A DNA stretch of 64,000 bases from an uncultured Weeksellaceae bacterium (GTDB taxonomy: Bacteria > Bacteroidota > Bacteroidia > Flavobacteriales_D > UBA2798). Shown in pieces: positions 28,149 to 46,144 of the stretch. The position numbers and the translations under genes are program-made. A model generated the notes under the pieces. That model saw only the letters and a program-made list of their open reading frames with translations. It was not told the DNA's origin and ran no database searches. The stretch lies in the NCBI GenBank assembly GCA_964460845.1, contig CAYWRZ010000005.1, positions 95,644 through 159,643 on the forward strand, in the 5' to 3' direction. The first letter of the stretch is position 1. Each line of letters starts with the position of its first letter.

Positions 28149-28199
28149 ATCCTTTTTCTAACGTTTCTTTTCGAGTGCTCCCAAATTGTGTGTACACCG

Positions 28200-28939: not shown

Positions 28940-28950
28940 AATAACTTATT

Positions 28951-29325
28951 ATGAGTGACTGCGACTACAACAAAGACTGTTCAAAAGTGCCTATCAGAGG
29001 AAAATGTGTATCATTCTGTTTAGAGCGTATATTACGAACTGCAACAATAGAAGAAAAGCAATTAATTCTTGGACTTGATAGAACTTTGTCTTTAGCAATC
29101 CATAATGCTTATAATGAACTTAAAGACATAAATTCGTTTGAAGATTTAAGTACACAATTAACACAAGAACAAGGGCAAACCCTGTTGACTAAGTTTAAGC
29201 AAATAAATCAATATCAATTAAATTATTTTAGAAAAAATAGACAAAAAAGAGACTTTATTATCAATAAAATCAAAAACTTAGGATTAGACTCTGATGAGGA
29301 GTCTCTTTTATCAAACAACCATTAG
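28951..29325 (+). CDS. hypothetical small protein with N-terminal Cys cluster
   Basis: Starts 11 nt after the previous stop. C-x5-C-x9-C-x3-C at the N-terminus (CDYNKDCSKVPIRGKCVSFC). No family recognised. Confidence 0.5.
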   Translation: MSDCDYNKDCSKVPIRGKCVSFCLERILRTATIEEKQLILGLDRTLSLAIHNAYNELKDINSFEDLSTQLTQEQGQTLLTKFKQINQYQLNYFRKNRQKRDFIINKIKNLGLDSDEESLLSNNH

Positions 29326-29735
29326 ACAAAATACTACCACAACAAGGTATTGCCCAAAGCGGGGCTGAACAGCTTCGTATCAACAAAAGTGCAGAATTCA
29401 ACTTCTGTTCTTCTGGAACTCAATGACAGAAAAAGAAATCACCTGGATAGCAGAATGAAAGAGGCACGAACCGCTAACACGGTTTTTGTACCTGCCCGTA
29501 GGCATATAGATTAGACATAATTACCTGAAAAAAAATTATGATTGCCGATAATAATATTCAATAATTATTGATAAATTCTACTCCGGTCAGCGATAGCTGA
29601 TCGGAACCACCCGAACCTACCGAAAGCAGCCAAGCAAAAAAAACCAATCCATTACCCCCACCAAAAAAGCAAACGAAAAATTACCAGGCACAGCATTACC
29701 TTTGTTGTCGTGAATACACAATCCAAAAGATCGCT

Positions 29736-30377
29736 ATGAAACGCTCTTCAAAAGCAGCCCACATTCTGAATCAACTCAATAGCCAAACCAAGCTGGGTGA
29801 CTTACGGAAAATTGCGAAGGATATCAAAAAAGACCACGAATTAGCGATAGAATTATGGTCAAGCGGGAATTTTTTACCCAGGCAACTCGCCATCCTGATT
29901 ATGGACAACAAGCTTCTTTCGCAGGATTTGATTAATCAGCTTGACAAGGACATGCAGACTCACCCGTTGAACGAGCGAAACCAACTCATAGATTGGCTGA
30001 TGGCTAACCAGCTTGCGAAAGACAAGAAAACCATTACACTGATGGAATCGTGGAAAAACAGCCCTTCTCCACTTCAAAGACGAATTTTTTGGTATTACCA
30101 GGCTCGTTTGCGTTGGCTGGGAAAAACACCTCCTCCCAACACGGAAGAATTGTTGGCGGCCATCGAAACACAACTAGAAAGCGAAGAACCCGAAGTACAA
30201 TGGGCCATGAATTTCACCGCAGGATGGATTGGCGTTTTTGATAAAAAGTATCGGACACGCTGTATCGAAGTGGGGCAGAAAACGGGACTTTACAAAGGCA
30301 AAATGGTCTCAAAAGGCTGTACTCCCGATTATTTACCGGAGTTCATTGCGATAGAAAGTCAGAAAAGAAATTTATAA
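29736..30377 (+). CDS. DNA alkylation repair protein (AlkD-like HEAT-repeat family)
   Basis: 213 aa. LRKIAKDIKKDHELAIELWSSGNFLPRQLAILIMD and later W-rich helical repeats resemble the DNA-alkylation-repair family. Recognition by eye only. Confidence 0.6.
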   Translation: MKRSSKAAHILNQLNSQTKLGDLRKIAKDIKKDHELAIELWSSGNFLPRQLAILIMDNKLLSQDLINQLDKDMQTHPLNERNQLIDWLMANQLAKDKKTITLMESWKNSPSPLQRRIFWYYQARLRWLGKTPPPNTEELLAAIETQLESEEPEVQWAMNFTAGWIGVFDKKYRTRCIEVGQKTGLYKGKMVSKGCTPDYLPEFIAIESQKRNL

Positions 30378-30381
30378 AAGT

Positions 30382-30836
30382 GTGCGCAGGGCCACAGAAA
30401 AAAGCAAAGACGAAATAAACAGACAAGGTGCTACACCTTTTGCGCAAACGTATTTTCACGGCACAAAAGCCGACTTAAAAATAGGCGACCGGATTGAAGC
30501 TGGCTTCCACTCCAACTATGGACAAAAAACACACACAAAATATAGTTTCCTGTCGGCCACATTAGACGCTGCCATTTGGGGGCTAAACTTGCCTTGTGTG
30601 AAGGCCGGGAAAGAATTTATTTGGTAGAGCCTACAGTACCAATTGAAGATGATCCGGACCCGACAGACAAAAAGTTTCCCGGCAATCCGACAAAATCGTA
30701 TCGTTCGACAGCGTCGTTCAGAGTGGTGGGAGAAGTAACTGTGTGGCAAGCATACCCGGCAGCACAAGTGCAAGCCATGAAAGCACACCTCGAAAAACTT
30801 AAAGCACAAGGAATTAACTCCTTAAATGAGGAATAA
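30382..30836 (+). pseudogene. arr: NAD(+)--rifampin ADP-ribosyltransferase (Arr), split by a 1-nt frameshift in a G5 run
   Basis: The two ORFs (30382-30627, 30576-30836) together read YFHGTKADLKIGD...YSFLSATLDAAIWG / AKLALCEGRERIYLVEPTVPIEDDPDPTDKKFPGNPTKSYRS, which is colinear with Arr. The frames join at TGGGGG (30577-30582). Confidence 0.8.
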
Positions 30837-30883
30837 GCCAAATGAGAGTCTTTTTATACTTTCAATTCGGAAAGCCTGATAAT

Positions 30884-30915
30884 CAAAACACTTTATAATT
30901 ACTTGCAGTGTTTTG
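30884..30915 (+). terminator. possible terminator hairpin downstream of arr
   Basis: CAAAACACT-(14 nt)-AGTGTTTTG, followed within 15 nt by T-rich sequence. The loop is large, so the call is weak. Confidence 0.3.
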
Positions 30916-31001
30916 TCGGAGCGATTTTATTTTTATATATTTTTAGCATAGTTATTCGATTATCGACTTATAAGTCGTGCTAATTTTAATGTAGTAAGGC
31001 G

Positions 31002-32543
31002 ATGAAACGCCCTTTTATACTGATTTTCGGCGTATTGTGCATAGAGGCTTTCGGTCAATATCCTGTAAAGCCGCAACCTGCTACCCCTCAGGCTTCCACG
31101 TTTAGCCCTATGGGCGAAAACGGGCATTACCGTTTTACCCTTACACCCGCACGGCCTGTTCAGCCTTCTACCTCCTATGTTCCGCCGATGGGCATGACAG
31201 GAGATGCAATCAAAGAGCAGGTTAATAGAAACGCATCTCATGGCGGAATACCCATACTTCATCCTAATGCCACGCAAAAAGAAAGACAACAAGCCTCAGA
31301 AGCATACATCCGTCAGCGCATGGCCAATGACCCGATGTATCAGTATCCGAATACAGCCAACGGTTTTACTCAAACTCATTTATCCCCAAGTCAGCAGCAG
31401 ATAATAAACCTGTTGAACGAGGTTCATGCTTCGGAATCTCCCCGCCGTAGTTCAGCTTCCTATTACCAGTCTTCGGAATTTACAGCTCTTACGAAGCCTT
31501 ATACCGATGCGTTACAGGAACTTAAAATGCAGCTTGCAGGACTTCGCCCGCTTTCGGTAGCCGATGCCTATTTCGCAGTCGAAAATGCCTTTGGCAATGC
31601 CTATTTGTCGAAAAATGAGTACGACCGTACAATAGAGGAATCGGTTGTATTTATCCGGCGGTGGCTTTCACAGCATGGATATAATCTTCAGGACAACGAA
31701 GCCCTGCACATAGGCTTGCAGCGTTTCCTGAGCGATACGCTCACTATCCGGTTGCCCGCCTCGGCAGACCGACCCGGAGCTTCCACGCTTAAAACGCACT
31801 TGCCTTTCTTTTACGATTATGAAGACTATACTGGCACGAAAGATTACCGCAACTATTTTCTGACCAAATGCCTGGCTACCGGCAGCGGACAATGCAATAG
31901 CCTTCCCACCGTGTACAATGCCCTTGCCCAAAAACTGGGAGCCGTATCGTACCTTTCTTTTGCGCCCCAACATTCCCTTATTAAATACCCCGGCAAAGAC
32001 GGAAGACTGCACAACTACGAAGCTACTACCAACTGGAAAATAAGCGATAAATGGTATAGGGATAATCTTTTTGTCAAGCAGGAAGCCCTGCGTAATCACA
32101 TGTACCTCGATACGCTCAACTATACGCAGATGGTAGCTAATGCTGTTATCGACCTTGCCACAGGGTATATCCAAAAGCACGGCGCAGCCGATGGGCGTTT
32201 TGTGGACGAGTGCCTGAATCTTGCCGCACCTTATTTCCCCAAACGAAATAACATTTACCTGTATTTTGTGCGCAGCCTAAAGCTGGCTTATCTACTGGAG
32301 AGAGAACTCCATACAAATGGTATAGAAGATGTTAAAGACATTGAACGTTTTCCGCATCTGAAAAGTCTCTATGAAGCCTTGGAAGAAAACGAAAGGCTTA
32401 TTACCGGAAAGGGGTATCAGGGAATGCCCCCGGAGCTGTATAATCAAATGATGGAAGAGCACCAGTACAAGAACCGCCAGCAGTCGGCAAAGTCCATCAA
32501 CGGCAAGCAAAAAAGAAACCTGTTTATTACCCAACCCCGATAA
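31002..32543 (+). CDS. secreted transglutaminase-like (Cys-His-Asn/Asp core) protein, paralog of the N-terminal region of the next gene
   Basis: Signal peptide MKRPFILIFGVLCIEAFGQ. Core GSGQCNSLPTVYNALAQKLGAVSYLSFAPQHSLIKYPGKDGRLHNYE aligns with GQGNCFAMVSLFRILSERLGSDAFISTVPGHIYIRHADKNGIVHNVE in 32553-34748. Confidence 0.6.
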   Translation: MKRPFILIFGVLCIEAFGQYPVKPQPATPQASTFSPMGENGHYRFTLTPARPVQPSTSYVPPMGMTGDAIKEQVNRNASHGGIPILHPNATQKERQQASEAYIRQRMANDPMYQYPNTANGFTQTHLSPSQQQIINLLNEVHASESPRRSSASYYQSSEFTALTKPYTDALQELKMQLAGLRPLSVADAYFAVENAFGNAYLSKNEYDRTIEESVVFIRRWLSQHGYNLQDNEALHIGLQRFLSDTLTIRLPASADRPGASTLKTHLPFFYDYEDYTGTKDYRNYFLTKCLATGSGQCNSLPTVYNALAQKLGAVSYLSFAPQHSLIKYPGKDGRLHNYEATTNWKISDKWYRDNLFVKQEALRNHMYLDTLNYTQMVANAVIDLATGYIQKHGAADGRFVDECLNLAAPYFPKRNNIYLYFVRSLKLAYLLERELHTNGIEDVKDIERFPHLKSLYEALEENERLITGKGYQGMPPELYNQMMEEHQYKNRQQSAKSINGKQKRNLFITQPR

Positions 32544-32552
32544 TACTTCCCT

Positions 32553-34748
32553 ATGAAAACCGCAGGAATTTTAATGATTATGGTCGTAGTGTGTGGTTTC
32601 ACTCCGGTAAAGGCATCGCAAGACAGCACCGCAAAGGCAGCCTTTTATACCGCCCAACAAGCCCTTGTAGAAATGCTCGAAGGGAATAAGCCATTAAGCT
32701 ATGAAAAGGCTATTTACCATATCGAAAACGCATGGTACGGAGGCGGTATAAGCGAAGCGACCTTTACCCGTATGCTTGACTTTCACACAGAAAACGTCCG
32801 GCAGCTCATCGCTACCCGTTATGAAAAACAAAATTTCACCACCACCTTGAGAGCTACGGCAGCACAGCAACAAGAGCGTTACGAAAAGGCATTAGCTAAC
32901 TGGGCAATTTACACCTACCTGACCGATACCATCTTGTTTGTAAGCCCCGAAGGGTTAATGTTGCACCTGCCTTATACCTACTCCTACCGCGACCCGCTGG
33001 CTACTGCCGACTGGACAAATACACAAGTGATAAACTTGTTGTTAAAAGGACAGGGTAACTGCTTTGCGATGGTATCGCTGTTCAGGATTCTTTCTGAGCG
33101 ATTGGGTTCGGATGCGTTTATCTCGACCGTACCGGGGCATATCTATATCCGTCATGCCGATAAAAACGGTATTGTGCACAATGTAGAACCCTCCACCCGC
33201 TCTTTTCCCGGAACCGGAACCTTACAGGTCTTGACATACAGCAGCGATGAGGCGGTAAGAAGCGGAATTTCTATGCGCAATTTAGATACCCGACAGTCCG
33301 TAGCCCTTTGTTTGGTATATTTAGCGAAAGGTTTTGAGTACAAATTCGGAATCCGTACCGATGATTTTCTGCTTGAATGTGCCGACATTGCCTTACAGCA
33401 CGATAGCCTGAACCTGAACGCCCTGCTATTGAAAGCCGGAATACTGGAAGAACGGTTATTAGTCAGAGGTTCAAGCGTGGAGGACTTACAGCGGTACACC
33501 GACTTTAACGAATACGAAAGCCTGATACGTGAGCTACACCGCCTCCATTACCGTGAAATGCCTTTGGAAATGAAGAACCTGATTATGGCCATGCACAAAA
33601 AGGAACGGTTTCCCGGCATCGTGGAAGACAAGACACCACAGCCTTCTAAACATTTAGGAATAACCCAAGACCGCTACGTTACTCTTTCGGGCGGACTGTT
33701 TGAGGAGTTTGATTACGATAAGCCCGTAGAGCAATACGGCCGTACCCTGTTCGACAGCGAAACCAAAAAGATAAGCGGATTTCTGACCGAAACACCCCAG
33801 CTTTACAACTACTACCAGTTCGACCCGGTCGTCTTCGCCTGGTCGATTGACCCGCTGGCAGCGAAGTACCCCTATATGTCGCCGTATGCCGCCTTTGCAG
33901 GGAATCCGATTTATTACAGAGACCCCGATGGAGCTGATGTGGAAGGATTTATGGCTTTACTTAAAGCCTCCATATATGGATCAGCAATTCAAACATTAAG
34001 TGATGCAAGCGAAACTTTCAATGCTACTATTAATCACTTTGTGTCCGTAAATGGTGGAGAGAATCCCAACTCTGCTAAAACCGATGGAAAGTGGAGTAAC
34101 GTTAACATTAGTTTTGGAACATTTAACGAAACTCCCGGTTCTGACGGAAATGAATTATTGGGTCGTAATATTTTTCAAATAAAAATAAACGGGAAGTGGC
34201 AAGATATTACGTCCGTAGATGATAATGTTCTTGATGGACTGGAATCCTCAAGCGGTAATCTTAGAATTTTAATAGAATTTAATACTGCAACAGGTAGTGA
34301 TTATTTTAAAAACATAGTGGTCGGTGCACATGAAGTCGGTTTACACCTTATTGCATTAGGTCAACTGGCAAACGATGTCTTAGCAGGTGCTAAAAGTTTA
34401 CGAAACGTAAAAGATGAAATATATGCTGGAGGGGACGAAAGTAAACAAATGGCTACAAAACATCATATAGGTGTTGCAAATGGAAGCCCGGTAGCTACGG
34501 TATATAATCAAATTTTAAACGAAGTAGAAAATCATTTAAGAGCAAATCGAAGAACTTTAAATGCTAAAGGAGAAAGCTATGCAAATATCAAATTATTAGG
34601 CAACCAAATGGATAACGACCCCGGTGAGGAGTTTCAAAATTCAAAAGGAAACTATACCGCAAGGCAAGGAGTGAGAGTGGCAAGGATGGCTTCTCAAAAT
34701 CATTATAGAAGTGAAACGGGAAAATTCAAACAAATCCAAGAGAAATAA
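32553..34748 (+). CDS. polymorphic-toxin-type protein: signal peptide, transglutaminase-like scaffold, RHS-core-type DPDG junction, variable C-terminal toxin domain
   Basis: Signal peptide. Cys170/His196 TGase-like core. Junction YMSPYAAFAGNPIYYRDPDG at aa 441-460 (DPDG = nt 33921-33932). A 271-aa AT-rich C-terminal domain containing AHEVGLH. Confidence 0.7.
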   Translation: MKTAGILMIMVVVCGFTPVKASQDSTAKAAFYTAQQALVEMLEGNKPLSYEKAIYHIENAWYGGGISEATFTRMLDFHTENVRQLIATRYEKQNFTTTLRATAAQQQERYEKALANWAIYTYLTDTILFVSPEGLMLHLPYTYSYRDPLATADWTNTQVINLLLKGQGNCFAMVSLFRILSERLGSDAFISTVPGHIYIRHADKNGIVHNVEPSTRSFPGTGTLQVLTYSSDEAVRSGISMRNLDTRQSVALCLVYLAKGFEYKFGIRTDDFLLECADIALQHDSLNLNALLLKAGILEERLLVRGSSVEDLQRYTDFNEYESLIRELHRLHYREMPLEMKNLIMAMHKKERFPGIVEDKTPQPSKHLGITQDRYVTLSGGLFEEFDYDKPVEQYGRTLFDSETKKISGFLTETPQLYNYYQFDPVVFAWSIDPLAAKYPYMSPYAAFAGNPIYYRDPDGADVEGFMALLKASIYGSAIQTLSDASETFNATINHFVSVNGGENPNSAKTDGKWSNVNISFGTFNETPGSDGNELLGRNIFQIKINGKWQDITSVDDNVLDGLESSSGNLRILIEFNTATGSDYFKNIVVGAHEVGLHLIALGQLANDVLAGAKSLRNVKDEIYAGGDESKQMATKHHIGVANGSPVATVYNQILNEVENHLRANRRTLNAKGESYANIKLLGNQMDNDPGEEFQNSKGNYTARQGVRVARMASQNHYRSETGKFKQIQEK

Positions 34749-34752
34749 AATC

Positions 34753-35535
34753 ATGATTAGAATTAAAAGTTTTTATTTTCTCCTTTTAGCAATAACAGCA
34801 GTTACTCAAAGCTGCATTAGCTCTGATAAAGTTTATTATGAATACGAATACGCAATAACATACACAAAAAAAAACTACATCTCCTATACTGAGGAAAAAA
34901 TAATTGAGAAAACACACAGCGCCTTTATGGGTAAAGACACTCTGTTTTTCCTTCACGCACAAGACACAGCAAACTTTCTGATACAAGGAACTTTAGACAC
35001 AATTACCCAAGAGGTAGTACAATGGGATACCCTTTTTGATATAATACCTGAAAAAGCAAACGGCCCTTACTTACTTAACAGAGAAAAAGGAATCATCGAA
35101 TATTCTGACAGAAACCATCAAAAAAGAACGTTAAAGTGGTTCGATTACAAAGATACCGTAGATTATTATTCTATCGAAACATGTAATCTTCTGAAAGAGA
35201 ATTCTCTATGCCGGGTTTTTTATAGTGGAAAAGAAGGGATTTGTATCGTAAATAACAAAGAATACAAATGTGATATATTCATTGCATTTTGCCCACAAAG
35301 AGGGCTACACGGAAAAAACACCTTTTCATTTATCTTTTTGGACAAAAAAACAAAAATGATTTTAAGAAAAGATTTTTATGTAATGGAGGACTTATCGCTG
35401 AGATTTCACAATATGAATGAGGGAATATTTGTTCCGGACATTTCCAATTATACAGGCTCAACTTATGTAACGAACATTAAGAAAAGTGCCTTAACACCCT
35501 CAAAAGTAAAATACTGGGATGAATGCTATCCTTAG
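34753..35535 (+). CDS. putative cognate immunity lipoprotein
   Basis: The ATG lies 4 nt after the toxin stop. Signal/lipobox-like LLLAITAVTQSC. Paralogous to 35772-36596. The immunity role is inferred from position only. Confidence 0.55.
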   Translation: MIRIKSFYFLLLAITAVTQSCISSDKVYYEYEYAITYTKKNYISYTEEKIIEKTHSAFMGKDTLFFLHAQDTANFLIQGTLDTITQEVVQWDTLFDIIPEKANGPYLLNREKGIIEYSDRNHQKRTLKWFDYKDTVDYYSIETCNLLKENSLCRVFYSGKEGICIVNNKEYKCDIFIAFCPQRGLHGKNTFSFIFLDKKTKMILRKDFYVMEDLSLRFHNMNEGIFVPDISNYTGSTYVTNIKKSALTPSKVKYWDECYP

Positions 35536-35755
35536 ATGCAGGGGTACTCTCACACGTTTTCACAACACAAACCATGATTTCGGCGCTCATGGCACATTAA
35601 AACATTTTCCTGACCAAACCGGAAATACACGGATGGAAAAAGCAAAATCTAAAGGTCTGCATACTGCAAGACAGGGACTAAGAGGAGCAAGAATCGCAGA
35701 ACAAGTTGCTCATAAATTGAAAACCGGGAGTTTTACACCAGTAGATGCAAAATAA
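35519..35755 (+). pseudogene. orphan toxin C-terminal tip remnant
   Basis: Its C-terminal half SKGLHTARQGLRGARIAEQVAHKLKTGSF aligns with the last ~45 aa of the 32553-34748 protein (SKGNYTARQGVRVARMASQNHYRSETGKF). There is no upstream toxin body. Confidence 0.5.
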
Positions 35756-35771
35756 TTGATTAGATTTTAAC

Positions 35772-36596
35772 ATGAAGCACAAAACGCTTTTTATACTTAT
35801 TTCTATTGTTATTGCTTCATCATGCAGCGAGAATAAAAATTTATTCTATTATGAGTATAATTACATTACGGAATTTAGAAAACTCTCTATTCAATTCCCT
35901 GAAAATATTGATATGGATTCAGTTACAGTAGATGATGCAATAGTCAGTATTGAAACCATTATTAATCCTTCCCGTTCCGTTTTATATAAAAATAAAGACT
36001 CTATATTTATTATTAATTATAGTGATACAGTAAACTATTTAATAGCCTATACGATAGATTCCGTAACCAACGAAATAATTGAAGCAGATACTTCATTCAA
36101 TATTCATGTTGGATACTCAAAAGGGCCTTTTAAATACAATCCTTCAAATTCAACAATACAGCAAGATTCGTTAACCTTTCAATGGTTAAGTAAAACAGAT
36201 ACCCTTGAATATAAAGGACTATACGGCATTAGCGCATTTTGCAAAAAAAATCCGCACTCCCAACAAGGAAGGATATTTTTTTCCGGTCGCCGGGAAATAT
36301 TCAGAATGGGAAATGAAATTTTCAACTGTGATATTTATATTGGTTACTTCCCTCAGAAAGGAATGCACTCTGAGGCTTATTTTGAACTTTTTTTTATTGA
36401 GGTAAATTCGGGAATTATCCTTAAAAGTGAAACGTATAAAGTAAACTCGCAAAAATATACGTATAGTTTTGAGGGAATGGAATACGAGAGCTACAAAACC
36501 AGTGAGGAAAATTTCATTGGAAGAACTTACCTTAAAAGCATTACCCCAAGCGACCTCACGCCTGCAAAAGTTAGTAACTGGGAAAATTGTCCTTAA
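35772..36596 (+). CDS. second putative immunity lipoprotein (paralog of 34753-35535)
   Basis: Lipobox IVIASSC. Shared blocks YYEY.Y, CDI.I...PQ.G.H and LTP.KV..W..C with the first copy. Confidence 0.55.
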   Translation: MKHKTLFILISIVIASSCSENKNLFYYEYNYITEFRKLSIQFPENIDMDSVTVDDAIVSIETIINPSRSVLYKNKDSIFIINYSDTVNYLIAYTIDSVTNEIIEADTSFNIHVGYSKGPFKYNPSNSTIQQDSLTFQWLSKTDTLEYKGLYGISAFCKKNPHSQQGRIFFSGRREIFRMGNEIFNCDIYIGYFPQKGMHSEAYFELFFIEVNSGIILKSETYKVNSQKYTYSFEGMEYESYKTSEENFIGRTYLKSITPSDLTPAKVSNWENCP

Positions 36597-36710
36597 CGCT
36601 GTTATCCGGTTGTATGAGGTTCAGAATGTGTAATATGCTAAATATTTTTTTGTTTAAAACCAGTTAAATTTTTAGGAGGGGTTACAGTTACACTGGTCTT
36701 CTGTCTTTCG

Positions 36711-36926
36711 TCATCCTACTTGGTTTTCTGAGTATTGTCCTTTAATGTGAGCCAAGAAGAACTTTCCTACTGAATCACTTCCAATAAATTCATAATAGGT
36801 GCTTTCAGGAACGTCATAATACTGCCATATTGCACCATTTTTTTTGAATTCAATTTCAAGAGTCAAAGTATCAGAATCAAATCCAATACTTGCTATCATT
36901 GATGATTCTACATATTGTCTGTCCAT
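36711..36926 (-). CDS. stand-alone KTSC-domain protein, third gene of the SIR2-HerA operon
   Basis: 71 aa. SSMIASIGFDSDTLTLEIEFKKNGAIWQYYDVPESTYYEFIGSDSVGKFFLAHIKGQY matches the KTSC domain pattern along its full length. The start is 2 nt after the herA-like stop. Confidence 0.85.
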   Translation of the reverse strand: MDRQYVESSMIASIGFDSDTLTLEIEFKKNGAIWQYYDVPESTYYEFIGSDSVGKFFLAHIKGQYSENQVG

Positions 36927-36928
36927 AT

Positions 36929-38698
36929 TTAAAATTTTTGTTGTCTTATTCTCGTAACAACGGTTTTATAATTTTCTTCATCAGTTGGGTGTTCGTGTTG
37001 CCATTTTTCAACAAGTTTTGGGTCATCACTTGTTGGTCTTGGAACATTAAGTTTAAGTCTTACTCTTGATGGAATTTTAATTGCTTCTCCAACAATTATG
37101 GCTTCACCTGTCCGTAATGACGGAAGTAGGTCAATTAAACTGTTTAAGTTGTCGGGGGCTGAGGATTTAACTATTGATTGGTCGCCTGAATTAGTTAGTC
37201 GTAATGCAATAAAAGTTCCCACTTGAGCTAAAATAGTTTCTGAAATTTCTGATGGTCTTTGGGAAATAACTAAAGCTCCTAAACCAAACTTTCTTCCTTC
37301 TTTGAATACCCTTTCTACCGCTGCCTTTGAATAACTGTTATTGTCATTTTTGTTAAGATAGTTGTGTGCTTCTTCATAAGCCAAAAGGAGTGGTCTATTC
37401 TTACCAGTATATGGTTCATTCCGACCCCAAAACATACTATCATAAACAAATCTTGTTATCAATCCAACTGTAATATCAAGGACTTCAAAAGGAACTCCGC
37501 TTAAATCTAAGATTGAGAGTTTACTGTCGCTACCAATCCATTCATTTAAAAGATGATGTAAATCTTTATCTGAATCGGCATCTTTGAAGTCTCCTGGATT
37601 AAAAAGGAAATCAAATCTTGAATCTTTGAGCCTTGATAAAATTTTCTTCTCGTATGAGTAAAATTCTTGGTGCTGTGATTTATATGGTGGTTTGGTGTTA
37701 TCCGTTGATAGATGTGATTTAAATTTTGCTCCAATTAAATTTTCTGCCTCTCCATCATCTACTTTGATTGCAGTAGATAAAATTTGTTCATCCTTTTTAG
37801 TTGTATTAAAACTTGCATTTAACCACCAATTCATTTCATACCATAGTTTTCTCACGCTAAAAGGAATTGGTGAATCACTTGTAACAAAATTTGGATTAAC
37901 TATACCCGCTTTTAGATTGCAATTTTCCTTTTTGAGATTTGTAACTAATTCCCGAAATAAACGATAATCTGGTTTTTGGTCATCTGTTGGTTTTGCTCCT
38001 ACTAAAAAGTATGCAAGTTCGTCAAAGGACATCAACCAAAATGGAATGAATAATGGATTGGCAGGGTCATTAATTTTTAGAACTTTGGCTTCAGGGAAAG
38101 CTGAAGAATATTCTCCGTGAGGGTCAACAAGAATAATTCTTGAACCTTGATAACCACTCAAAATTGCTTTGAGAATACTAACTGTTGTATTAGACTTACC
38201 ACTACCTGTTGAACCCAAAATTGCACAATGTCTCAAAACCAATCTGTGCAAATCTGCATAAACGCTTAAATTTTCAGATGAGGAGTGTTTGCCAATTTCA
38301 ATAGAGCCTGCATCTTTTTTACCATAAATATCAAACAGGTCTTTTTCAATAACTATGTGAACTTCATCATTGATTGTTGGATAAGTCCCAATACCTTTTT
38401 CAAAATCATCTTCTCCAACTTTTTCGCCAACAAGTTGAACAGTTAAAAACCTTGAGCCAAAACTATATTTTAGAAGCGTTTCATCTGTTTTGCTTGGCGT
38501 ATTACTTACTGATGAAACAATACCGTAAATTGTAATATTGCCAATCGGTATTTTTACGAATGTTCCGATTTGTCCAATTTTATAAAGCCGACCATTGATA
38601 ATAGGAGCTGCTGATGGTATTTCGTTTGAAACTTCCACTTCAACTGTCCCAGAGTCAACCCGTATAATATGACCTAAATATGTTATCTCGGTTTTCAT
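36929..38698 (-). CDS. herA: HerA-like ATPase (DUF87/FtsK-HerA superfamily) of a SIR2-HerA defence system
   Basis: N-terminal HAS-barrel-like region, Walker A GSTGSGKSN, Walker B LLLAYEEAHNYL, LVISQRPSE motif. ATGA overlap with the upstream SIR2 gene. Confidence 0.9.
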   Translation of the reverse strand: MKTEITYLGHIIRVDSGTVEVEVSNEIPSAAPIINGRLYKIGQIGTFVKIPIGNITIYGIVSSVSNTPSKTDETLLKYSFGSRFLTVQLVGEKVGEDDFEKGIGTYPTINDEVHIVIEKDLFDIYGKKDAGSIEIGKHSSSENLSVYADLHRLVLRHCAILGSTGSGKSNTTVSILKAILSGYQGSRIILVDPHGEYSSAFPEAKVLKINDPANPLFIPFWLMSFDELAYFLVGAKPTDDQKPDYRLFRELVTNLKKENCNLKAGIVNPNFVTSDSPIPFSVRKLWYEMNWWLNASFNTTKKDEQILSTAIKVDDGEAENLIGAKFKSHLSTDNTKPPYKSQHQEFYSYEKKILSRLKDSRFDFLFNPGDFKDADSDKDLHHLLNEWIGSDSKLSILDLSGVPFEVLDITVGLITRFVYDSMFWGRNEPYTGKNRPLLLAYEEAHNYLNKNDNNSYSKAAVERVFKEGRKFGLGALVISQRPSEISETILAQVGTFIALRLTNSGDQSIVKSSAPDNLNSLIDLLPSLRTGEAIIVGEAIKIPSRVRLKLNVPRPTSDDPKLVEKWQHEHPTDEENYKTVVTRIRQQKF

Positions 38699-39888
38699 TT
38701 AGTAAGGTTTTCAATTGCTTCTCTTTTTCCTGAATTGGAAATTAAAAAGTTTACAAGTTCATTGAAGTCTCCAAGTTTGAATCTATTTGTTGTAGAATCC
38801 CAATAGGTTTCTGATTTTTCATTTGGCTTTAAATCATCCGCTAAATAATGCCACTCTCCCAGATTGCCGTTTACAATAGCCTTTGTTGGTCCAAAGACTA
38901 TGAGATTCATATATGAAGATGTTAGTTTGTGTAAATTCTCTACTTCAGCATCTTGGAAAAAGAAAACCAATGCAGTTAGTCTATTGTTTTGTCGTAAACA
39001 GTTGAATATTATTTCATTGATATGTTGGTCGGAGAATGAATATCCTGAAAAAATGAAAAGAAGTTCTCCACTGAGCAAATAATTTTTCAGTCTGTCGAAA
39101 TATGCTATGAAGGGTTGTTTCTTTGATGAATCGTATTTTTCTTTTGAAGGATAAATTACTAATTCATTCTTTTCATCTTCTATTTTTTCAATTTTTCCTT
39201 GTCGTATGATTTTTTGTGATTTTGTTGCTGGGTCAATTTTCCAAAACCAACTTAATGAGCCGTGAATTTTCCAAAGTCTAATCCAATTTTGAGTCAGGTC
39301 ATTTTTGGAGACAAATTGGTCAATACTTTCCTGCCAAAAGAATGGCTCAAATGAGCCAACAAATCCGTCAAAGTAGGGGATTTGGCTAGCTTCTAAAGAT
39401 TTTTCAATTATTAGGTCATAATTTGTTGTGAATATTTCTTTTGAAAAATCTCTATTTAGCATACTTAGCCAAGCAAAGAATTTTTTTGTTTGACTGATAT
39501 CAGCTAATGATTCTTTTGCGGCAATGATTTGATAAATTATTTTACATATTTCTATATCTAAGGTTTTTGCAGATTCTCCTGTGATTCCTTGATAACTTTT
39601 AGTATTGACTTCTCCAGTAATCTCTCTAATTCTTCTAATGTGATTTAGGATGTCTTCAATATTGACATTTCGATCCGTTATGATGGTTTTTAAGTCTTCC
39701 TTAATAGCTATAAAGTTGGCTTTATTCTCGTCTTTTAATTCCTCTTCAATCCCTATTGTCAATTGTTCAACATTCGGAATTTTTAATGCACAAGAAGTTC
39801 CTGCACCAAAAAAGAATCCTATGTTTTTTGAATAGGATAAATGTGTTTTCAGCTCTCTTACTTCTCTTATTAAGTTTATTTTTTCCAT
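38695..39888 (-). CDS. SIR2-family (SIR2_2-type) NAD-binding/NADase protein of a SIR2-HerA defence system
   Basis: FFFGAGTSCALKIP (GAGxS), TTNYDLIIE, KIHGS (catalytic His context), about 400 aa. Confidence 0.88.
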   Translation of the reverse strand: MEKINLIREVRELKTHLSYSKNIGFFFGAGTSCALKIPNVEQLTIGIEEELKDENKANFIAIKEDLKTIITDRNVNIEDILNHIRRIREITGEVNTKSYQGITGESAKTLDIEICKIIYQIIAAKESLADISQTKKFFAWLSMLNRDFSKEIFTTNYDLIIEKSLEASQIPYFDGFVGSFEPFFWQESIDQFVSKNDLTQNWIRLWKIHGSLSWFWKIDPATKSQKIIRQGKIEKIEDEKNELVIYPSKEKYDSSKKQPFIAYFDRLKNYLLSGELLFIFSGYSFSDQHINEIIFNCLRQNNRLTALVFFFQDAEVENLHKLTSSYMNLIVFGPTKAIVNGNLGEWHYLADDLKPNEKSETYWDSTTNRFKLGDFNELVNFLISNSGKREAIENLTK

Positions 39889-40007
39889 CTCATTCGATTT
39901 GTCAATCTGGTCTCAGGTCGTTCTTTAGGCTTGCACCCAATATTTTTTAGACTTAGCGTTCGGGAAGATTTCGGAGCACAAAGCTTCAATTTATACTAAT
40001 GACATTA

Positions 40008-40041
40008 GAAACAAAAAGCTCCGTCCCTAAAGCTTTCGGGA
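40008..40041 (-). terminator. possible intrinsic terminator of the 40088-40960 gene
   Basis: Minus strand shows near-palindrome TCCCGAAAGCTTTAGGGA followed by CGGAGCTTTTTGTTT. The U-run is offset by 5 nt, so confidence is moderate to low. Confidence 0.35.
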
Positions 40042-40087
40042 TTGTACGTTAGCCCGCATGACGCAAAACCCGTGTTATAAGCTGCCA

Positions 40088-40960
40088 TTACAAGAATCTT
40101 TTTGCTAATTGTTTTAGAATTCTGATTCCATGAATAGTAAAAGTCCCATCTTCATTTATTATTCTGAGATTAAGCATTCCTATAAGTTCTTGTTTGCTTA
40201 ATTCTTCTAAATTAATTCTGAATTTTCTACTTAAAACTGAATTCGGGTATTTCATTATTGCTTCAAAAGGCATATTCTGCTTTCTGATCAAATCAATAAG
40301 TCGCCTTATAATGCTTTCTGGAATTTCTTCTAAAATAATGTCGTCATTTTCACTTTCATGGTATAAACGATTTCTTAAAAAATTTAATTCTCGATTTTGT
40401 TTCGAAATCTCTACTTCTTTTTCCTTTAACTGTTTTCGTATTTGCTCTTTTTCATGTTGTTCCAATTGAGCCTTTTCAATCAATGAGTTTAAAATTTCGT
40501 TTCTTTCTTGAATTTCTTGCTTTAACTTTATTTTTTCCTTTTCTATTTCTTCTTTTGTCTCTTTAATGTTTTTGTCATTGAACCCATTATCGAACTTATT
40601 AACTAAACCACTATATCCTTCGTCCAAATGCCTCAGTCTTTCTCCAAAACCAGCTTCTATTCTTCCAAGAATTTCTGATATTTCTTTAGTAAATTTATAT
40701 GTGTTATCATAAAACAAGTTACTTGTATCGGTAGCTTTAAAATAAAATGCTACTGATAATGCAATTGCAAAAAGTGAAAGTAAAAGAGCAAGTAGTGCAT
40801 TGAAATCGAACTTTGAAAAATCAAATGTCCAATCTGATACTGCAAGCTTGTATATTATCAAAGCAACTATTAGAATTCCTGAAATAAGTTTAAACCAGTC
40901 AAATAATGTTGCTTTTGACGATTCCTGCTTTGATTTTTTATTTTTTTCTTCTTTTTCCAT
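40088..40960 (-). CDS. hypothetical protein: K-rich N-terminus, 2 TM helices, long coiled coil, about 90-aa C-terminal domain
   Basis: 290 aa in about 28% GC DNA. TM segments LISGILIVALIIYKLAV and LLALLLSLFAIALSVAFYF. E/K heptad region aa 130-200. Confidence 0.6.
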   Translation of the reverse strand: MEKEEKNKKSKQESSKATLFDWFKLISGILIVALIIYKLAVSDWTFDFSKFDFNALLALLLSLFAIALSVAFYFKATDTSNLFYDNTYKFTKEISEILGRIEAGFGERLRHLDEGYSGLVNKFDNGFNDKNIKETKEEIEKEKIKLKQEIQERNEILNSLIEKAQLEQHEKEQIRKQLKEKEVEISKQNRELNFLRNRLYHESENDDIILEEIPESIIRRLIDLIRKQNMPFEAIMKYPNSVLSRKFRINLEELSKQELIGMLNLRIINEDGTFTIHGIRILKQLAKRFL

Positions 40961-41354
40961 GTCTGAGGTCTAATATGGTTGCTTATAACTCTTAAATATG
41001 CGCAAAATGATTGCGTATATCCTTTCAATTTCAGAAAATAAATGCAATAAAGATACTTCACACAAGAATAATTACTTTTTTATTACGTAAAAAATCGAAA
41101 GAACTATTTTATCAAAGGAGCTTGGTTTTTCACTATTTCGCCTCACACCTCCCCTTTCACAACCTAAATATCTGAAAAATATTCATTTACAAGCCATTCC
41201 ACCTCTTCAAAACCCTCCCAGGAAGGGTTAGAAACCTGTCTCCTACTCTCCCACAGCAACCGAGCACCTACCCCATGCCTCAACATATTTCCGGAATATT
41301 TACGTAATTTTAGGGTCTCTATTTCAACTGTTCTACAGACCAAACGACAACGCT

Positions 41355-42740
41355 ATGAAAAAAGCGCTTTTATTGCTTACCACCCTATTTATGGCCAGCT
41401 TCACTTTCGGACAGGAATCAAAAGCTGAATTATTAGACAGCTTATTTACCGCACTGCACCATAAAAAAATGTTTAACGGTAACGTGCTCATCGCAGAAAA
41501 AGGAACGGTAATTTTTGAAAAAAGCTACGGCTTAGCCGATGAAGAAAAAAAACGGCCGCTCAATGCCCAAACTATTTTTGAACTGGCCTCCGTGTCCAAA
41601 CAATTTACCGCAATGGGAATTGTGCTGCTGCAAAAGCAGGGAAAGCTGAACTACGACGATCCCCTTTCGAAGTACATCCCCGAGCTGGATTTTTACGGTC
41701 CTATCAGCATCCGGAACTTGCTGATCCATACGAGCGGACTCCCCGACTACATGGAGCTTCTTGATGCGCATTGGGATAAAACAAGATTTGCTACCAACCA
41801 GGATATTGTCAACGAATTTGTAAAACACAAGCCCGAAGCGGCTTTCCAGGCGGGCGAAAAATTTGAATACAGCAACACCGGCTATGCCTTACTGGGCCTG
41901 ATTATCGAAAAAGTTTCAAAAAAATCGTTCGGAGATTTTCTGGCCGCTGCCATTTTTAAGCCGCTGAACATGAAAAACACGTTGGTGTACAGAAGCCGTT
42001 ACGCACCAAAAAAAATAAAAAACTATGCGCAAGGCTATGTAAATGACGGCCTGGGAAATAAAGTGCTTCCCAACAGTTTCGGAAAAGGATTTTACAGCTA
42101 TTACCTCGACGGAATCGTGGGCGACGGAATGGTCAACTCCACTACCGAAGATCTGCTCAAATGGGACCGTGCGCTTTACACCGACAAGCTGGTCAATACC
42201 GAAGATAAATCACTTATTTTCAACTCTGTCCGAACCAATAACGGCAAAGAAACCCGCTACGGATTCGGGTGGGTCATCGACCAAACGGAGAAATACGGGA
42301 AAATCGTGAACCACGGAGGAGGCTGGGCCGGTTATGTCACCTTTATCGAACGACACCTCGACAACGACAAAACCATTATTATTCTTCAGAACAATTCGCA
42401 CGAGCTCACCGCTTTACCCGTAAAAGACGCCAGAAAAATACTGTACGATGAACCTTTGAGTAAAGAAAATCTTAAGGCCGTTACCCTGAATGACGAAGCG
42501 CTCGACAAGTACGTGGGCACCTACACAAACGAAGAAATTCAGCTTACCATTTACATCGTGAAAAAAGACAATGTACTAATGGCTCAAGCCGAAGGGCAAA
42601 ACGCCTTTCCGTTGGATGCTTTTGAAAATCACACTTTTAAATTCGAACCTGCGCAGATTAAGATGATTTTTCATCCCGAAGCACAACGCATGGATTTCTT
42701 TCAGGACGACTTCAGTTTTACGTTCCGGAAAATCGAATAA
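41355..42740 (+). CDS. serine hydrolase, beta-lactamase (class C/PBP4*-like) family
   Basis: Signal peptide, SxxK motif (SVSKQF), YxN motif (YSNTGY), HGG near the C-terminal part of the catalytic domain. Confidence 0.85.
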   Translation: MKKALLLLTTLFMASFTFGQESKAELLDSLFTALHHKKMFNGNVLIAEKGTVIFEKSYGLADEEKKRPLNAQTIFELASVSKQFTAMGIVLLQKQGKLNYDDPLSKYIPELDFYGPISIRNLLIHTSGLPDYMELLDAHWDKTRFATNQDIVNEFVKHKPEAAFQAGEKFEYSNTGYALLGLIIEKVSKKSFGDFLAAAIFKPLNMKNTLVYRSRYAPKKIKNYAQGYVNDGLGNKVLPNSFGKGFYSYYLDGIVGDGMVNSTTEDLLKWDRALYTDKLVNTEDKSLIFNSVRTNNGKETRYGFGWVIDQTEKYGKIVNHGGGWAGYVTFIERHLDNDKTIIILQNNSHELTALPVKDARKILYDEPLSKENLKAVTLNDEALDKYVGTYTNEEIQLTIYIVKKDNVLMAQAEGQNAFPLDAFENHTFKFEPAQIKMIFHPEAQRMDFFQDDFSFTFRKIE

Positions 42741-42920
42741 AATTGTACTGTGTCCGTGCCTAAATCAGGTGTAAGCGGCACACATAAATTTAAAATCCGG
42801 AGCAAAAGTTTGCCTCTCAGGCTGTAATCAACTTATTCTGCAGCTATCGATGGCCAATACCCACTCTGATTTACAGCAAATTTCATCTCTTTCAGCCCAA
42901 TAATTGGAAAGATTTATTGT

Positions 42921-45656
42921 TTACTTATTCTTCCTCTCAGAAGCCTCAAAATCTACCTGATCATCAAGACCGGTAATTACACCGGTCATCGTATCAAATG
43001 TAGTTGTATCGACCCCTAGCTTTTGCAAAGATTCTTTTCTTGCTGCGGTGGGGTCTTCGACTGCGGATATCTCAAGTACGTGCTTTAATTCTTGCAGTAG
43101 CGCTACAAGTTGCTGCATAGTATCTTGAATCAACAAGGTAGAAGTCTCAGATAAATTCAAATCCCGAATCTTTTGAAAGATCGTTAAGGTTTCGGAAATA
43201 TCGATCCCATCGATAGAATCCAGGCTTTCATATTTTTCTCCGTACCATTCATTATTAAATTTGAAATCATTTAGTAATACTTGTAGGGTGTGTTTTTTGT
43301 CTGAGTGCTCTTCTAGCTGATCAAAATGATTTACAAGGAATTGAGTTTGGCTTATGAAATTATTTATTCCGTTCGATAATTGTGTGCCCTTATGAATATT
43401 ATCCCCTTGCCAACCCTTCTTTACAATGTCCTGATGAGCCTTCACGTCATTAAGGTATGCTTCGTAGATTTTGTGAGCGATTCCAGCATTTTCCTTTTTG
43501 TGAATCTGCAGGGCTATCCCAATATCCATGTGGTTCATATCCGGAGAAAACAGACGCTCATGATCGATTTTCAAATCTGGCGACAAGCCATGGCGAGCAC
43601 TGTTTATATTAATGGCATGTTGCTCTCCATGAAGACTCCATTCATGCGTAAGGGTCTCGATCAGGCTACCCATTGAATCCATTGATGTACCATTATGATA
43701 GTACTGAGAGTTTAATTCAATTTCTATCGTGTACTGATCAAATGCTGTTTCTGGTTTTATATATTCAGAGGCTATAACAGCTACCCCATTAGCTTTCAGA
43801 CGTGTTATACCATAACAATCGACCAAAGGTTTGAAGGAAATATTCAGGTCTATTCCATCCTGACCCTGCACAAGATCGATATTACCTAAACTGGAAACTA
43901 GTTGTGTAAGGGTTTTTCCATTGGCCAGGGGCTGTCCACTTTCATTAATTTGTCTTTGGATTGGGGCACGCCTTAATTGGGACACATGTGATTCATTTAC
44001 AGTATGCTGAACGGAAGAAAGTTGCTGAACATTTTCTGTTCCGTCCCCCTCATTTGAAATTTCCTCATCTGAACTAAAGTTCAGGTCTATATCCCACCCA
44101 TCTCCTGGCTGAGGCTGAAGCTCTGGCTCATTCTCCTTCTCTATATCTGCTTTTAGTGGTGCAATCCATTCTTCTTCCTTATCTTGTAATAACAGGTCAT
44201 ATCCTTCCACTGAAATCTTCTTTCCAGTCTTAACCGCTTCCAGCCACCTCTCAAATTCTTGTTTAAAGTCCAGCGCTCTTTTCTTATGGGTATTTGTTTC
44301 GGAGGCTAAAAATTGTAATTCATTTATTTTTCGTTTTAATTTTTTAAATAACTCTAATCTGGGTAAATAGTCGCTATCCATTTTCTCCCGGATAGCCATT
44401 ACCGTTTCATAGCGAGCTTCGAGATACCTTCTATCTTCTCGTAATTCCTCCTCGATTTCGGCATAAGAGTCTCTGAAATAATCTACGTCCTCTCGACAGA
44501 CATCTAATTGCAAGAAGTCGTATAACTGAGTTTTTCCTTTTGTAATAGCTTGAACCAGCTTATCGTAGGTAATCTTATTGGGGACATAGGTTTGCCATCC
44601 TTCTGACTCTCCTTGCAAAATACTCCTCAGCTCATCTTTTGAATTGATATACTGAAAATTCACTTTAGAATTCGGGTTTTGAACTGTAGGTACTCCCTGA
44701 CTATTTATTCTTACTGTACCTTTAGCTAAGTGAACACGAGCGCCTAATAAATCGGCAAGAGCTTGTCCTTTAGACACCAGAAATTCATCCATGAGAGTCG
44801 CTCCCGAACAAGTAATAAATACAATATCAGAATCCGGTTTCGGTGTATAATTGCGTTTTTTGAGAAAATCGAACAGTATGGAGGCTGTCCATTTAGCCAT
44901 TGTTCCACCATGCATAAAGATGGTAATCGGAGAGGTCGCTATACTTAAATCAATCTCATCTACCTTGTATTGATGAAGTGACTTACCGACAAGTTCATCG
45001 TTCATCAATTCACTATATTTTTCAGGATCCGTCTGATGAAATTCTGGTCCTTCACTTGCAATTTTATAGGTAGTCCTTTGTATTGAACTAGCTAACGTGT
45101 GTAAGGGTTGCTTTTTTCCTCCAGCCTGAGCCTGAGCTTGATCCAATCCCTTACCCAGTGCGTTTTCTCCCATTACATCGGCCTCTTTTTCCAACCCTGC
45201 ATCGTCATTTATATTCACTCCTTTATGCATCTGAACCGTAGGTTTTACCCTGCCTTCTTTCTGTTGAACCACATGCCATGCCTCATGAGGCAAGTGTTTT
45301 TCCTGTCCAGAGGCCAAATGGATATCCGTTCCCTGTGCATATGCGTGCGCTTGTAATTGAGCCGGTTTATCAGAATTGTAATGCACTTTCACATCATCCA
45401 TCGAGTAGCCCGATAGGGTTTCTATTCCTGTCTTTAAATTATCAGGCAGTCCTGTGTTATTTTCTTTTTTCTGGATGGGTTGTAGCTGTTTATTCGCATA
45501 ATTATTAGCCATTGATTGCAGCTTCCGTTGCGCAACTGCCTCAGGTCGATTATCCACAAACTGAAAATTGAACTCAGCACCTCTTTGAATCAGCGATTCT
45601 CCATTCGAAACCGATTGACTTTTATCTTCTTGTGTTTTGTCAGCGTGTGTATGCAT
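42921..45656 (-). CDS. 911-aa DUF4157 (zincin-like) domain-containing putative toxin
   Basis: LSGYSMDDVKVHYNSDKPAQLQAHAYAQGTDIHLASGQEKHLPHEAWHVVQQ matches the DUF4157 signature, including HExxH-VVQQ (HEAWH = nt 45273-45287). A long unrecognised C-terminal region follows. Confidence 0.8.
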   Translation of the reverse strand: MHTHADKTQEDKSQSVSNGESLIQRGAEFNFQFVDNRPEAVAQRKLQSMANNYANKQLQPIQKKENNTGLPDNLKTGIETLSGYSMDDVKVHYNSDKPAQLQAHAYAQGTDIHLASGQEKHLPHEAWHVVQQKEGRVKPTVQMHKGVNINDDAGLEKEADVMGENALGKGLDQAQAQAGGKKQPLHTLASSIQRTTYKIASEGPEFHQTDPEKYSELMNDELVGKSLHQYKVDEIDLSIATSPITIFMHGGTMAKWTASILFDFLKKRNYTPKPDSDIVFITCSGATLMDEFLVSKGQALADLLGARVHLAKGTVRINSQGVPTVQNPNSKVNFQYINSKDELRSILQGESEGWQTYVPNKITYDKLVQAITKGKTQLYDFLQLDVCREDVDYFRDSYAEIEEELREDRRYLEARYETVMAIREKMDSDYLPRLELFKKLKRKINELQFLASETNTHKKRALDFKQEFERWLEAVKTGKKISVEGYDLLLQDKEEEWIAPLKADIEKENEPELQPQPGDGWDIDLNFSSDEEISNEGDGTENVQQLSSVQHTVNESHVSQLRRAPIQRQINESGQPLANGKTLTQLVSSLGNIDLVQGQDGIDLNISFKPLVDCYGITRLKANGVAVIASEYIKPETAFDQYTIEIELNSQYYHNGTSMDSMGSLIETLTHEWSLHGEQHAININSARHGLSPDLKIDHERLFSPDMNHMDIGIALQIHKKENAGIAHKIYEAYLNDVKAHQDIVKKGWQGDNIHKGTQLSNGINNFISQTQFLVNHFDQLEEHSDKKHTLQVLLNDFKFNNEWYGEKYESLDSIDGIDISETLTIFQKIRDLNLSETSTLLIQDTMQQLVALLQELKHVLEISAVEDPTAARKESLQKLGVDTTTFDTMTGVITGLDDQVDFEASERKNK

Positions 45657-46144
45657 AGCTTCCCGATTTGAGGCTTCTAAAGTGTCCTATAACGCATTTA
45701 TATATAGGTAATAAAACTACAAAATATCCTGAAAACGGATTGGATTAGGATATAGCAGAAAAATTGAGAATGGCTAAAATAGCCCGTTATACTTTAAAAT
45801 CAACTGGTTTTCCGCTTATCAATCGCCAGCGAACGGAAGGCCACTTCGAGCAGAAAGAAAAAGAGCTTATCGCCAGGCCATACTTTTTTCCCATTCCAAA
45901 ATTGTATCCATACAGGTCGTATAAAAACGCCTGCTTCTCTTCCTGCCTTTTACAAAAACATGGAAATCAGCTAAAACAAGACCTTAAAACCTTTTGCTTA
46001 TCAGATTGAAATTGAAATATGCTATCCCATCTTATGTGTAAAAGCGATACCTTTTTTGGAAAAAGCACAATTACCCTTACCTTCCTGTATCGATTTCTGT
46101 GACAAAAGAGAAGCGTACATTTCCACTCTTCTTCCCATTTAATA

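Follow-up and report, generated by a model that had tools for sequence, protein, structure and literature searches.

The SIR2-HerA system is described in the defence literature as a pair of genes, and the locus analysed here raises the question of what a third, very small gene is doing at their end. The window under study is a stretch of 64,000 nt (contig CAYWRZ010000005.1 of assembly GCA_964460845.1, positions 95,644 to 159,643) from an uncultured Weeksellaceae bacterium. Its minus strand carries a gene for a SIR2_2-type NADase (38695–39888, 397 aa), followed by a gene for a HerA-like ATPase of the hexameric type (36929–38698, 589 aa) and by a stand-alone gene for an acidic protein of 71 aa (36711–36926) that consists of a KTSC domain, a domain which according to its Pfam description occurs at the C-terminus of some lysyl-tRNA synthetases. 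Taken together, our analyses indicate that the locus is probably a three-gene SIR2-HerA abortive-infection cassette, in which KTSC would be a HerA-bound structural or regulatory subunit that is encoded separately.

The three genes and their conservation

Open reading frames (ORFs) of the cassette are tightly joined. The TGA of the SIR2 gene and the ATG of herA share a 4-nt overlap, ATGA, at 38695–38698 (minus-strand junction ...AAATGAAAA...), and the TAA of herA is separated from the ATG of the KTSC gene by the two nucleotides AT. The three minus-strand ORFs and both junctions are exactly as described in a sequence-only reading of this DNA made previously, whose proposal of one tightly coupled unit is borne out by the overlap, the short gap and the strict conservation documented below. 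All the motifs that it listed are present as well, namely GAGTS (residues 28–32), TTNYD (154–158) and KIHGS (207–211) in SIR2, and the Walker A sequence GSTGSGKSN (162–170) and the Walker B sequence LLAYEEAH (438–445) in HerA, with N156 and D158 of TTNYD and H209 of KIHGS as the putative catalytic residues of SIR2. Its G+C estimate of 28–32% was somewhat low, as the cassette measures 33.1% (SIR2 31%, HerA 34%, KTSC 33%), to be compared with ~48% in the flanking genome.

Profile searches uphold the three family assignments of that reading. SIR2 matched Pfam SIR2_2 (E=1.2e-19) and the PADLOC SIR2 model PDLC04093 (8e-135), and HerA matched the Pfam DUF87/HerA central domain (1.1e-39) together with HerA_C, as well as the PADLOC HerA model PDLC04105 (1.9e-158). 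The locus thus agrees with the two-gene definition of SIR2-HerA used by PADLOC and Gao 2020, having adjacent and co-directional SIR2_2 and HerA (DUF87) genes in which the N/D/H residues of SIR2 and both Walker motifs of HerA are intact. The small protein belongs to PF13619 on the grounds of its fold and of a full-length profile match above the gathering score (2.5e-23, 82 bits against a cutoff of 25, model positions 1–58 of 58); it gave zero matches to the PADLOC models, which include none for a KTSC protein. Scores on the NCBIfam equivalogs SIR2_antiphage (NF042942) and HerA_antiphage (NF042943 and NF042944) were 74, 169 and 317 bits, so far under the respective cutoffs of 500, 800 and 850 that the SIR2 and HerA of the window must be assigned to another subfamily. 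A DUF4297-HerA (nuclease-HerA) system was also considered and rejected, since the partner is SIR2 and the DUF4297-type HerA structures were only second-tier matches.

A genome scan with the HerA of the window, limited to one genome per species, recovered 78 loci with HerA proteins 66–97% identical, distributed among Bacteroidota, Bacillota, Gamma- and Betaproteobacteria, Desulfobacterota, Ignavibacteriota, Spirochaetia and others. A KTSC ORF lies directly 3' of herA in 77 out of the 77 loci with downstream DNA, the remaining locus being one whose contig stops inside herA. Among the 64 loci with three intact genes, the distance from the herA stop to the KTSC start ranges from −46 to +22 nt and is most commonly 3 nt, the negative values being partly a product of first-start ORF calling. 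Metagenomes and viral contigs were searched with a HerA alignment and clade profile that included plasmid homologues of 41% identity, yielding 80 metagenomic HerA loci (32–79% identity) and 49 loci on viral contigs. Room for a downstream gene existed in 71 of the metagenomic loci, of which 59 have a separate KTSC gene, five have KTSC fused to HerA in an ORF of ~680 aa and seven have none; HerA identity is at most 37% in all these seven. On viral and prophage contigs KTSC accompanies each of the 12 HerA genes of clade type (11 split, one fused) and none of the 35 more distant HerA genes with downstream room, 18 of which are preceded by a SIR2-like gene.

When the full-length HerA proteins with clade-profile scores of 600 bits or more were pooled, 140 proved to be split from KTSC, six fused to it and none devoid of it (146 loci, partly non-independent since some are near-identical copies); four of the 140 were found via KTSC itself, so the unbiased count is 142 out of 142. 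Below 600 bits, KTSC appeared in one case out of six. The pattern of linkage is bimodal and spans phyla, and the upstream partner is SIR2 in every clade locus with upstream DNA. Conservation of the KTSC gene, which the sequence-only reading had put forward as a check on its proposal, has therefore turned out to be strict within this HerA clade. The RefSeq-annotated trio of SIR2, HerA and KTSC is found on plasmids of Citrobacter, Enterobacter, E. coli strain C5, Mesorhizobium, Pseudoalteromonas and Sulfitobacter, and no KTSC or recognisable SIR2 accompanies two plasmid HerA genes of 31–33% identity. The Kluyvera version of the cassette gave zero matches in 5,426 complete E. coli genomes at megablast and blastn sensitivity, and another member of the clade was detected in just one of these genomes, where it is plasmid-borne.

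Selection acts on the small gene itself. Median ratios of non-synonymous to synonymous substitution rates (dN/dS) were 0.20 for KTSC, 0.075 for HerA and 0.066 for SIR2, most pairs being close to saturation at synonymous sites. KTSC evolves under purifying selection, and its identity between loci correlates with that of HerA (Spearman 0.58). Natural HerA-KTSC fusions occur in metagenomic and viral loci (L106, L107, L109, L110, L113 and L172), and two further fragments (P0292 and P0307) show Pfam HerA_C and KTSC on one protein. In a neighbour-joining ordering of the HerA cores five of the fused forms cluster and the sixth stands apart, all of them amid split forms, a placement according to which the split arrangement looks both ancestral and typical and the fusion derived.

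The limits of the cassette also include KTSC. Similarity by blastn to the closest loci (L001, 91% identical, from an Algoriphagus metagenome-assembled genome (MAG), L002, L004 and L017) extends from 36693 to 39940–39985, and no related locus matches the window outside 36500–40000 in a blastn comparison with all loci. These edges define the moving unit as exactly SIR2-herA-KTSC plus ~100 nt upstream and 18 nt downstream, and the cassette is horizontally mobile. On the minus strand, its 3' edge is the segment 36693–36710, ending 18 nt past the KTSC stop codon, and at the other end a non-coding stretch 5' of SIR2 (39889–39985) travels with the genes as the presumed promoter region. A lone sigma-70-like consensus match at 39905–39878 gives a weak hint in this respect, and the scan for promoters and terminators returned counts no higher than in shuffled sequence.

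KTSC as a detached domain of HerA

Comparison of the KTSC protein with all Protein Data Bank (PDB) chains by phmmer yielded three real matches, the best being the HerA chain 8WIV, followed by the stand-alone proteins 4RGI and 7X8C. Residues 2–66 of KTSC match residues 629–692 of the 696-aa chain 8wiv_A (E=1.6e-14), which is deposited as ‘Helicase HerA central domain-containing protein’ and corresponds to the HerA of the SIR2-HerA system of Paenibacillus sp. 453MF (Liao et al. 2024, PMC11472057). The same chain is the closest solved relative of the HerA of the window, whose residues 5–588 align to 8wiv_A 11–604 with an E-value of 7.4e-123, other solved HerA proteins reaching at best 1.5e-68. 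Since this alignment ends at residue 604 and the KTSC match begins at 629, the HerA of the window stops where the Paenibacillus protein continues through a linker of ~24 residues into KTSC. Likewise, the SIR2 of the window matches the Paenibacillus 453MF SIR2 (8w9l) with 6.9e-48 and any other solved SIR2 with 2.6e-12 at best, and the residues N163, D165 and H212, named as catalytic in the Paenibacillus enzyme (Liao et al. 2024, PMC11472057), align to the identical N156, D158 and H209. Both large proteins are therefore closest to the Paenibacillus pair rather than to those of Nezha, S. aureus or the DUF4297 type, which places the system of the window in the Paenibacillus-453MF-type clade of SIR2-HerA, and a KTSC module is found at or after the C-terminus of HerA, in the window as a separate gene. 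Hence the KTSC gene of the window encodes, as a protein of its own, what in Paenibacillus is the C-terminal KTSC module of HerA.

Structural models agree with this assignment. The AlphaFold2 model of KTSC, built from a 72-sequence alignment, has a predicted local distance difference test (pLDDT) score of 97 and the order beta-beta-beta-alpha-alpha-beta. In Foldseek it reached template modelling (TM) scores of 0.95 with 4RGI and 7X8C and of 0.82–0.90 with the HerA chains 8WLD, 8WOF, 8WIV and 8WJ3 (root-mean-square deviation 1.1–2.5 Å over about 70 columns), a superposition which implies that the KTSC domain is built into the models of both HerA alone and the SIR2-HerA complex obtained by cryo-electron microscopy (cryo-EM). 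Residues 576–696 of Paenibacillus HerA have been named the ‘C-terminal arm domain’, which wraps around the RecA-like domain of the neighbouring subunit, and this C-terminal extension stabilises a split-spiral hexamer of low activity (Liao et al. 2024, PMC11472057). The name KTSC is never used in that paper, where the contact in trans is assigned to ‘alpha19-20 and their linker’ (Liao et al. 2024, PMC11472057). It is plausible that alpha19-20 are the two helices of KTSC, which are the last two of the protein and are joined by a turn bearing the invariant motif S52-x-G54. The helix count fits this correspondence only after two short helices are added, and the numbering is no more than suggestive because the AlphaFold2 model of the HerA of the window is poor (pLDDT 61, residues 1–169 below 50).

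The Paenibacillus system (8WIV, 8WLD, 8WOF and 8W9L) shares with the window the gene order SIR2 to HerA, the catalytic N/D/H residues, the Walker motifs and the KTSC fold, but there the 696-aa HerA itself ends in a covalently attached KTSC, which in the window is the product of a separate 71-aa gene. By their phmmer E-values the two systems are related but diverged, the KTSC sequences being about 40–45% identical; clade members that align with the HerA of the window are about 41% identical. A search for the full-length Paenibacillus HerA sequence, with a part of the protein reconstructed from the alignment as query, recovered nothing but fragments with no more than 64% identity. The SIR2-HerA or Nezha system of E. 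coli (Gao 2020; 8J4U) and the E. coli types I–III (Zhang et al. 2026) have in common with the cassette the design of a SIR2 NADase ring seated on a hexamer of HerA and an abortive-infection mode of action. Nezha, however, is only a distant match (HerA 1.8e-31, SIR2 1.2e-11) and its solved chains have no fused KTSC, in the same way as the distant SIR2-HerA loci of our sampled sets lack KTSC; the classification of E. coli Sir2-HerA systems by Zhang et al. 2026 does not mention the domain.

A different kind of resemblance is found in the C-terminal ‘brace’ of Sulfolobus HerA (4D2I) and S. aureus HerA, an element that also reaches the neighbouring protomer and holds the hexamer. The brace, however, is a short helical tail without KTSC, and the HerA of the window keeps such a tail (~560–589), with KTSC as an extra. 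Stand-alone KTSC proteins of PF13619, such as Y. pestis YPO2434 (4RGI) and the Methanolobus vulcani protein (7X8C), are of the same size and beta3-alpha2-beta fold and share with our KTSC the turn S-x-G-[KR]-[FY]-F between the helices, but they have no known partner or function, whereas the KTSC of the window is tied to HerA; a literature search found no paper on either structure. The coupling of HerA-like ATPases to a KTSC gene in a conflict system was reported as a one-sentence unpublished observation by Iyer et al. 2022, concerning variants in which an endoDNase replaces the sirtuin, unlike the window and the clade loci, which have SIR2. In the literature searched, only that group names both KTSC and HerA.

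These relationships qualify the novelty that the sequence-only reading had attributed to KTSC. Its statement that KTSC lies outside the described SIR2-HerA system holds insofar as PADLOC has no model for it and the defence papers give two genes, but the same domain is fused to HerA in Paenibacillus. Similarly, an ‘undescribed third component’ is an apt expression for a conserved third gene that the defence catalogues omit, though not for the domain that it encodes, a detached piece of HerA already present in a solved structure. Because of that fusion, the KTSC of the window is better regarded as a split piece of a known machine than as a wholly new component. What is new is modest but concrete, namely that the ‘arm domain’ of Liao et al. 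contains, as part of residues 576–696, a KTSC domain, that KTSC is a separate and translationally coupled gene in about 96% of the sampled clade members, and that the boundary of the cassette takes it in.

In this large cross-phylum clade, selection and horizontal transfer keep together three genes where catalogues and papers count two, and the only member examined in depth, that of Paenibacillus, is an exception with the uncommon fused form. Cloning ‘SIR2 + HerA’ from a typical clade member would accordingly drop part of HerA, and KTSC could serve detection models as a marker of the clade. Naming the cryo-EM arm as KTSC also provides the first structural context within a complex for a widespread domain of unknown function, and the natural split makes the role of the arm in hexamer state and NADase gating accessible through one small gene.

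KTSC domains were also observed in settings other than the 3' end of the cassette. In the MAG ‘bacterium BRH_c32’ (L036), a 391-aa protein encoded at 1939–3114 has an N-terminal KTSC domain (9.4e-22) and an Mrr_cat-like restriction-endonuclease region with a borderline score (21.8 bits, cutoff 21). Its gene precedes a complete SIR2-HerA-KTSC cassette by 140 nt, the sole case among ~200 HerA-seeded loci and the one link to a nuclease that was observed. On a plasmid of Pseudoalteromonas sp. HL-AS2 (L083, 5218–5772), a gene for a SLATT-domain protein, a two-transmembrane effector, starts 11 nt past the stop of the cassette KTSC and may represent a fourth gene joined to the cassette; its SLATT scores in Pfam are below the gathering cutoffs. 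A Halorubrum plasmid (L087, 2181–5213) has a KTSC gene that shares 4 nt with the end of a JAB and ThiF (E1-like) gene, which is preceded by an E2/UBC gene; similar KTSC matches were seen on Haloarcula and Halorarius plasmids, and this arrangement means that in haloarchaea KTSC is also the last gene of an operon for ubiquitin-like conjugation. Phages, too, commonly carry KTSC domains, either free or fused (L219–L247 from IMG/VR, and BFVD). Neither HerA nor SIR2 was found nearby in 29 of the 30 viral loci located via KTSC, two of which have KTSC just upstream of the terminase large subunit, and the fold matches in BFVD include a PBSX-family portal protein, a 1030-aa protein of the 2'-5' RNA-ligase superfamily and a ‘structural protein’ of phage PA5oct. 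Searches of the neighbours of phage KTSC genes against PHROGs gave mostly no matches, apart from two terminase large subunits.

The role of KTSC and competing explanations

In Paenibacillus, a HerA hexamer carries a SIR2 ring of 12 or 14 subunits docked on the N-terminal beta-barrels of HerA (Liao 2024, PMC11472057). According to Liao 2024 and to what is cited of Garb 2022, the NADase, nuclease, ATPase and helicase activities are turned on when the complex assembles, and depletion of nicotinamide adenine dinucleotide (NAD+) aborts phage replication; that the 453MF system is protective via NAD+ depletion is attributed to Garb 2022 in later papers. By analogy with this machine, KTSC is most likely a structural or regulatory subunit of HerA, and probably neither an independent enzyme nor a nucleic-acid binder. 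The 2-nt gap suggests that KTSC would be made in step with HerA through termination-reinitiation. The protein might then bind the HerA ring non-covalently at the position held by the fused domain, forming part of an arm that reaches the RecA-like domain of the neighbouring protomer, and could in this way help to set the conformation of the hexamer, whose resting state in Paenibacillus is the split spiral. A role in protein-protein contacts fits the acidic character of the KTSC family, whose median pI is 4.6 and whose median net charge is −4.5. Covariation between HerA and KTSC, computed as mutual information with average product correction on 146 pairs (effective number 70), reached 0.356 against no more than 0.237 in pairing shuffles; it was rejected as an interface signal, since it is spread across all HerA domains, driven by KTSC positions 34 and 10, and so diffuse a distribution reflects phylogeny.

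Several observations weigh against the assignment of KTSC as a subunit of the HerA arm. The deletion of the arm is not reported by Liao et al. 2024 (PMC11472057), and alpha19-20 could instead be the two tail helices that the HerA of the window keeps. Moreover, the dN/dS of KTSC is about three times that of HerA or SIR2, and the domain is also found in unrelated contexts, such as the E2-E1/JAB operon, the phage portal and terminase neighbourhoods and the nuclease fusion. This faster evolution and these contexts leave room for a role of KTSC beyond that of a passive brace.

One such role, which on balance we regard as unlikely, would be that of a dissociable gate or sensor, the free KTSC keeping HerA inactive until it is displaced, titrated or modified by a phage cue, for instance a protein or DNA ends, so that the ATPase and NADase activities are freed; the split gene would exist since reversibility matters. 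That the split form is the rule (140/146) and the fused forms derived speaks for such a function, and so does the stabilisation of a low-activity split spiral by the C-terminal extension (Liao et al. 2024, PMC11472057). The dN/dS of 0.20, compared with ~0.07 for the partners, is what would be expected at a host-phage interface, although small subunits at the periphery of a complex also typically evolve faster. Free KTSC proteins are frequent in phages (the 29 of 30 viral loci without HerA and 33 BFVD fold matches) and could serve as mimics. However, the Paenibacillus version, in which KTSC is permanently tethered, defends well as far as Garb 2022 is cited, so at least one member does not need dissociation.

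A broader proposal, and a rather doubtful one, would make KTSC a portable docking or gating module for ring-shaped translocases. In this clade the free subunit would reversibly clamp the HerA hexamer, phage infection would release this checkpoint, KTSC-tagged effectors such as the protein with KTSC and an Mrr-like nuclease region could be recruited to the same site, and the numerous free KTSC proteins of phages, of which some are neighbours of portal or terminase genes, could be decoys or counter-defence mimics.

It is quite improbable, by contrast with a HerA-bound subunit, that KTSC is a nucleic-acid-binding module supplying the HerA translocase with phage DNA or RNA or with DNA ends. The domain has been labelled as DNA-binding by Iyer et al. 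2022 and as the RNA-binding domain of lysyl-tRNA synthetase in their 2021 paper, but both labels are unreferenced and without experimental support. A fusion of KTSC with an Mrr-like nuclease beside one cassette (L036) would be compatible with such an activity; on the other side, the HerA-linked family is strongly acidic, with the median pI of 4.6 given above, and Foldseek with the KTSC model revealed no relatives of nucleic-acid-binding fold above noise. Finally, the idea that the KTSC ORF is a spurious or unrelated small gene beside a two-gene system, for which one might invoke the abundance of stand-alone KTSC genes, often in unrelated contexts, has practically nothing left in its favour and is refuted by the comparative data, given the presence of KTSC in 146 of 146 clade loci, the tight spacing, the purifying selection, the natural fusions and a cassette boundary that includes it.

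Surroundings of the cassette in the window

The gene that precedes SIR2 on the same strand, at a distance of 200 nt (40088–40960, minus, 290 aa), was rejected as a member of the system, as it has no homologue in the related loci and the DNA homology stops before it. Its product has predicted N-terminal membrane segments and a long coiled coil rich in lysine and glutamate, and its family matches are all sub-threshold. The cassette lies within a variable region of low or mixed G+C content (~28000–46000). A tRNA-Ser(TGA) gene at 27896–27981 is situated exactly where the G+C content drops from ~49% to ~36%, and no integrase was seen among the ORFs of the window that were scanned.

Two further loci were noted in this region. 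On the plus strand, the segment 31002–36596 looks from its gene content like a polymorphic-toxin array. It comprises two transglutaminase-core-like paralogues of 513 and 731 aa, which are 26% identical over 374 aa. After the gene for the 731-aa protein come, in this order, a 274-aa lipoprotein-like ORF, a 78-aa ORF (35519–35755) and a second 274-aa paralogue; the end of the 78-aa ORF resembles the C-terminal 57 aa of the 731-aa protein (37% identity), and the two 274-aa proteins, for which neither Pfam nor PADLOC gave a match, are 29% identical to each other. The arrangement may represent a toxin with its immunity gene, followed by a pair formed by an orphan C-terminal tip and its immunity gene. 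On the minus strand, at 42921–45656, lies the gene for a protein of 911 aa whose N-terminal part matches eCIS_core (DUF4157; 3.2e-9), a kind of domain found on the cargo toxins of extracellular contractile injection systems.

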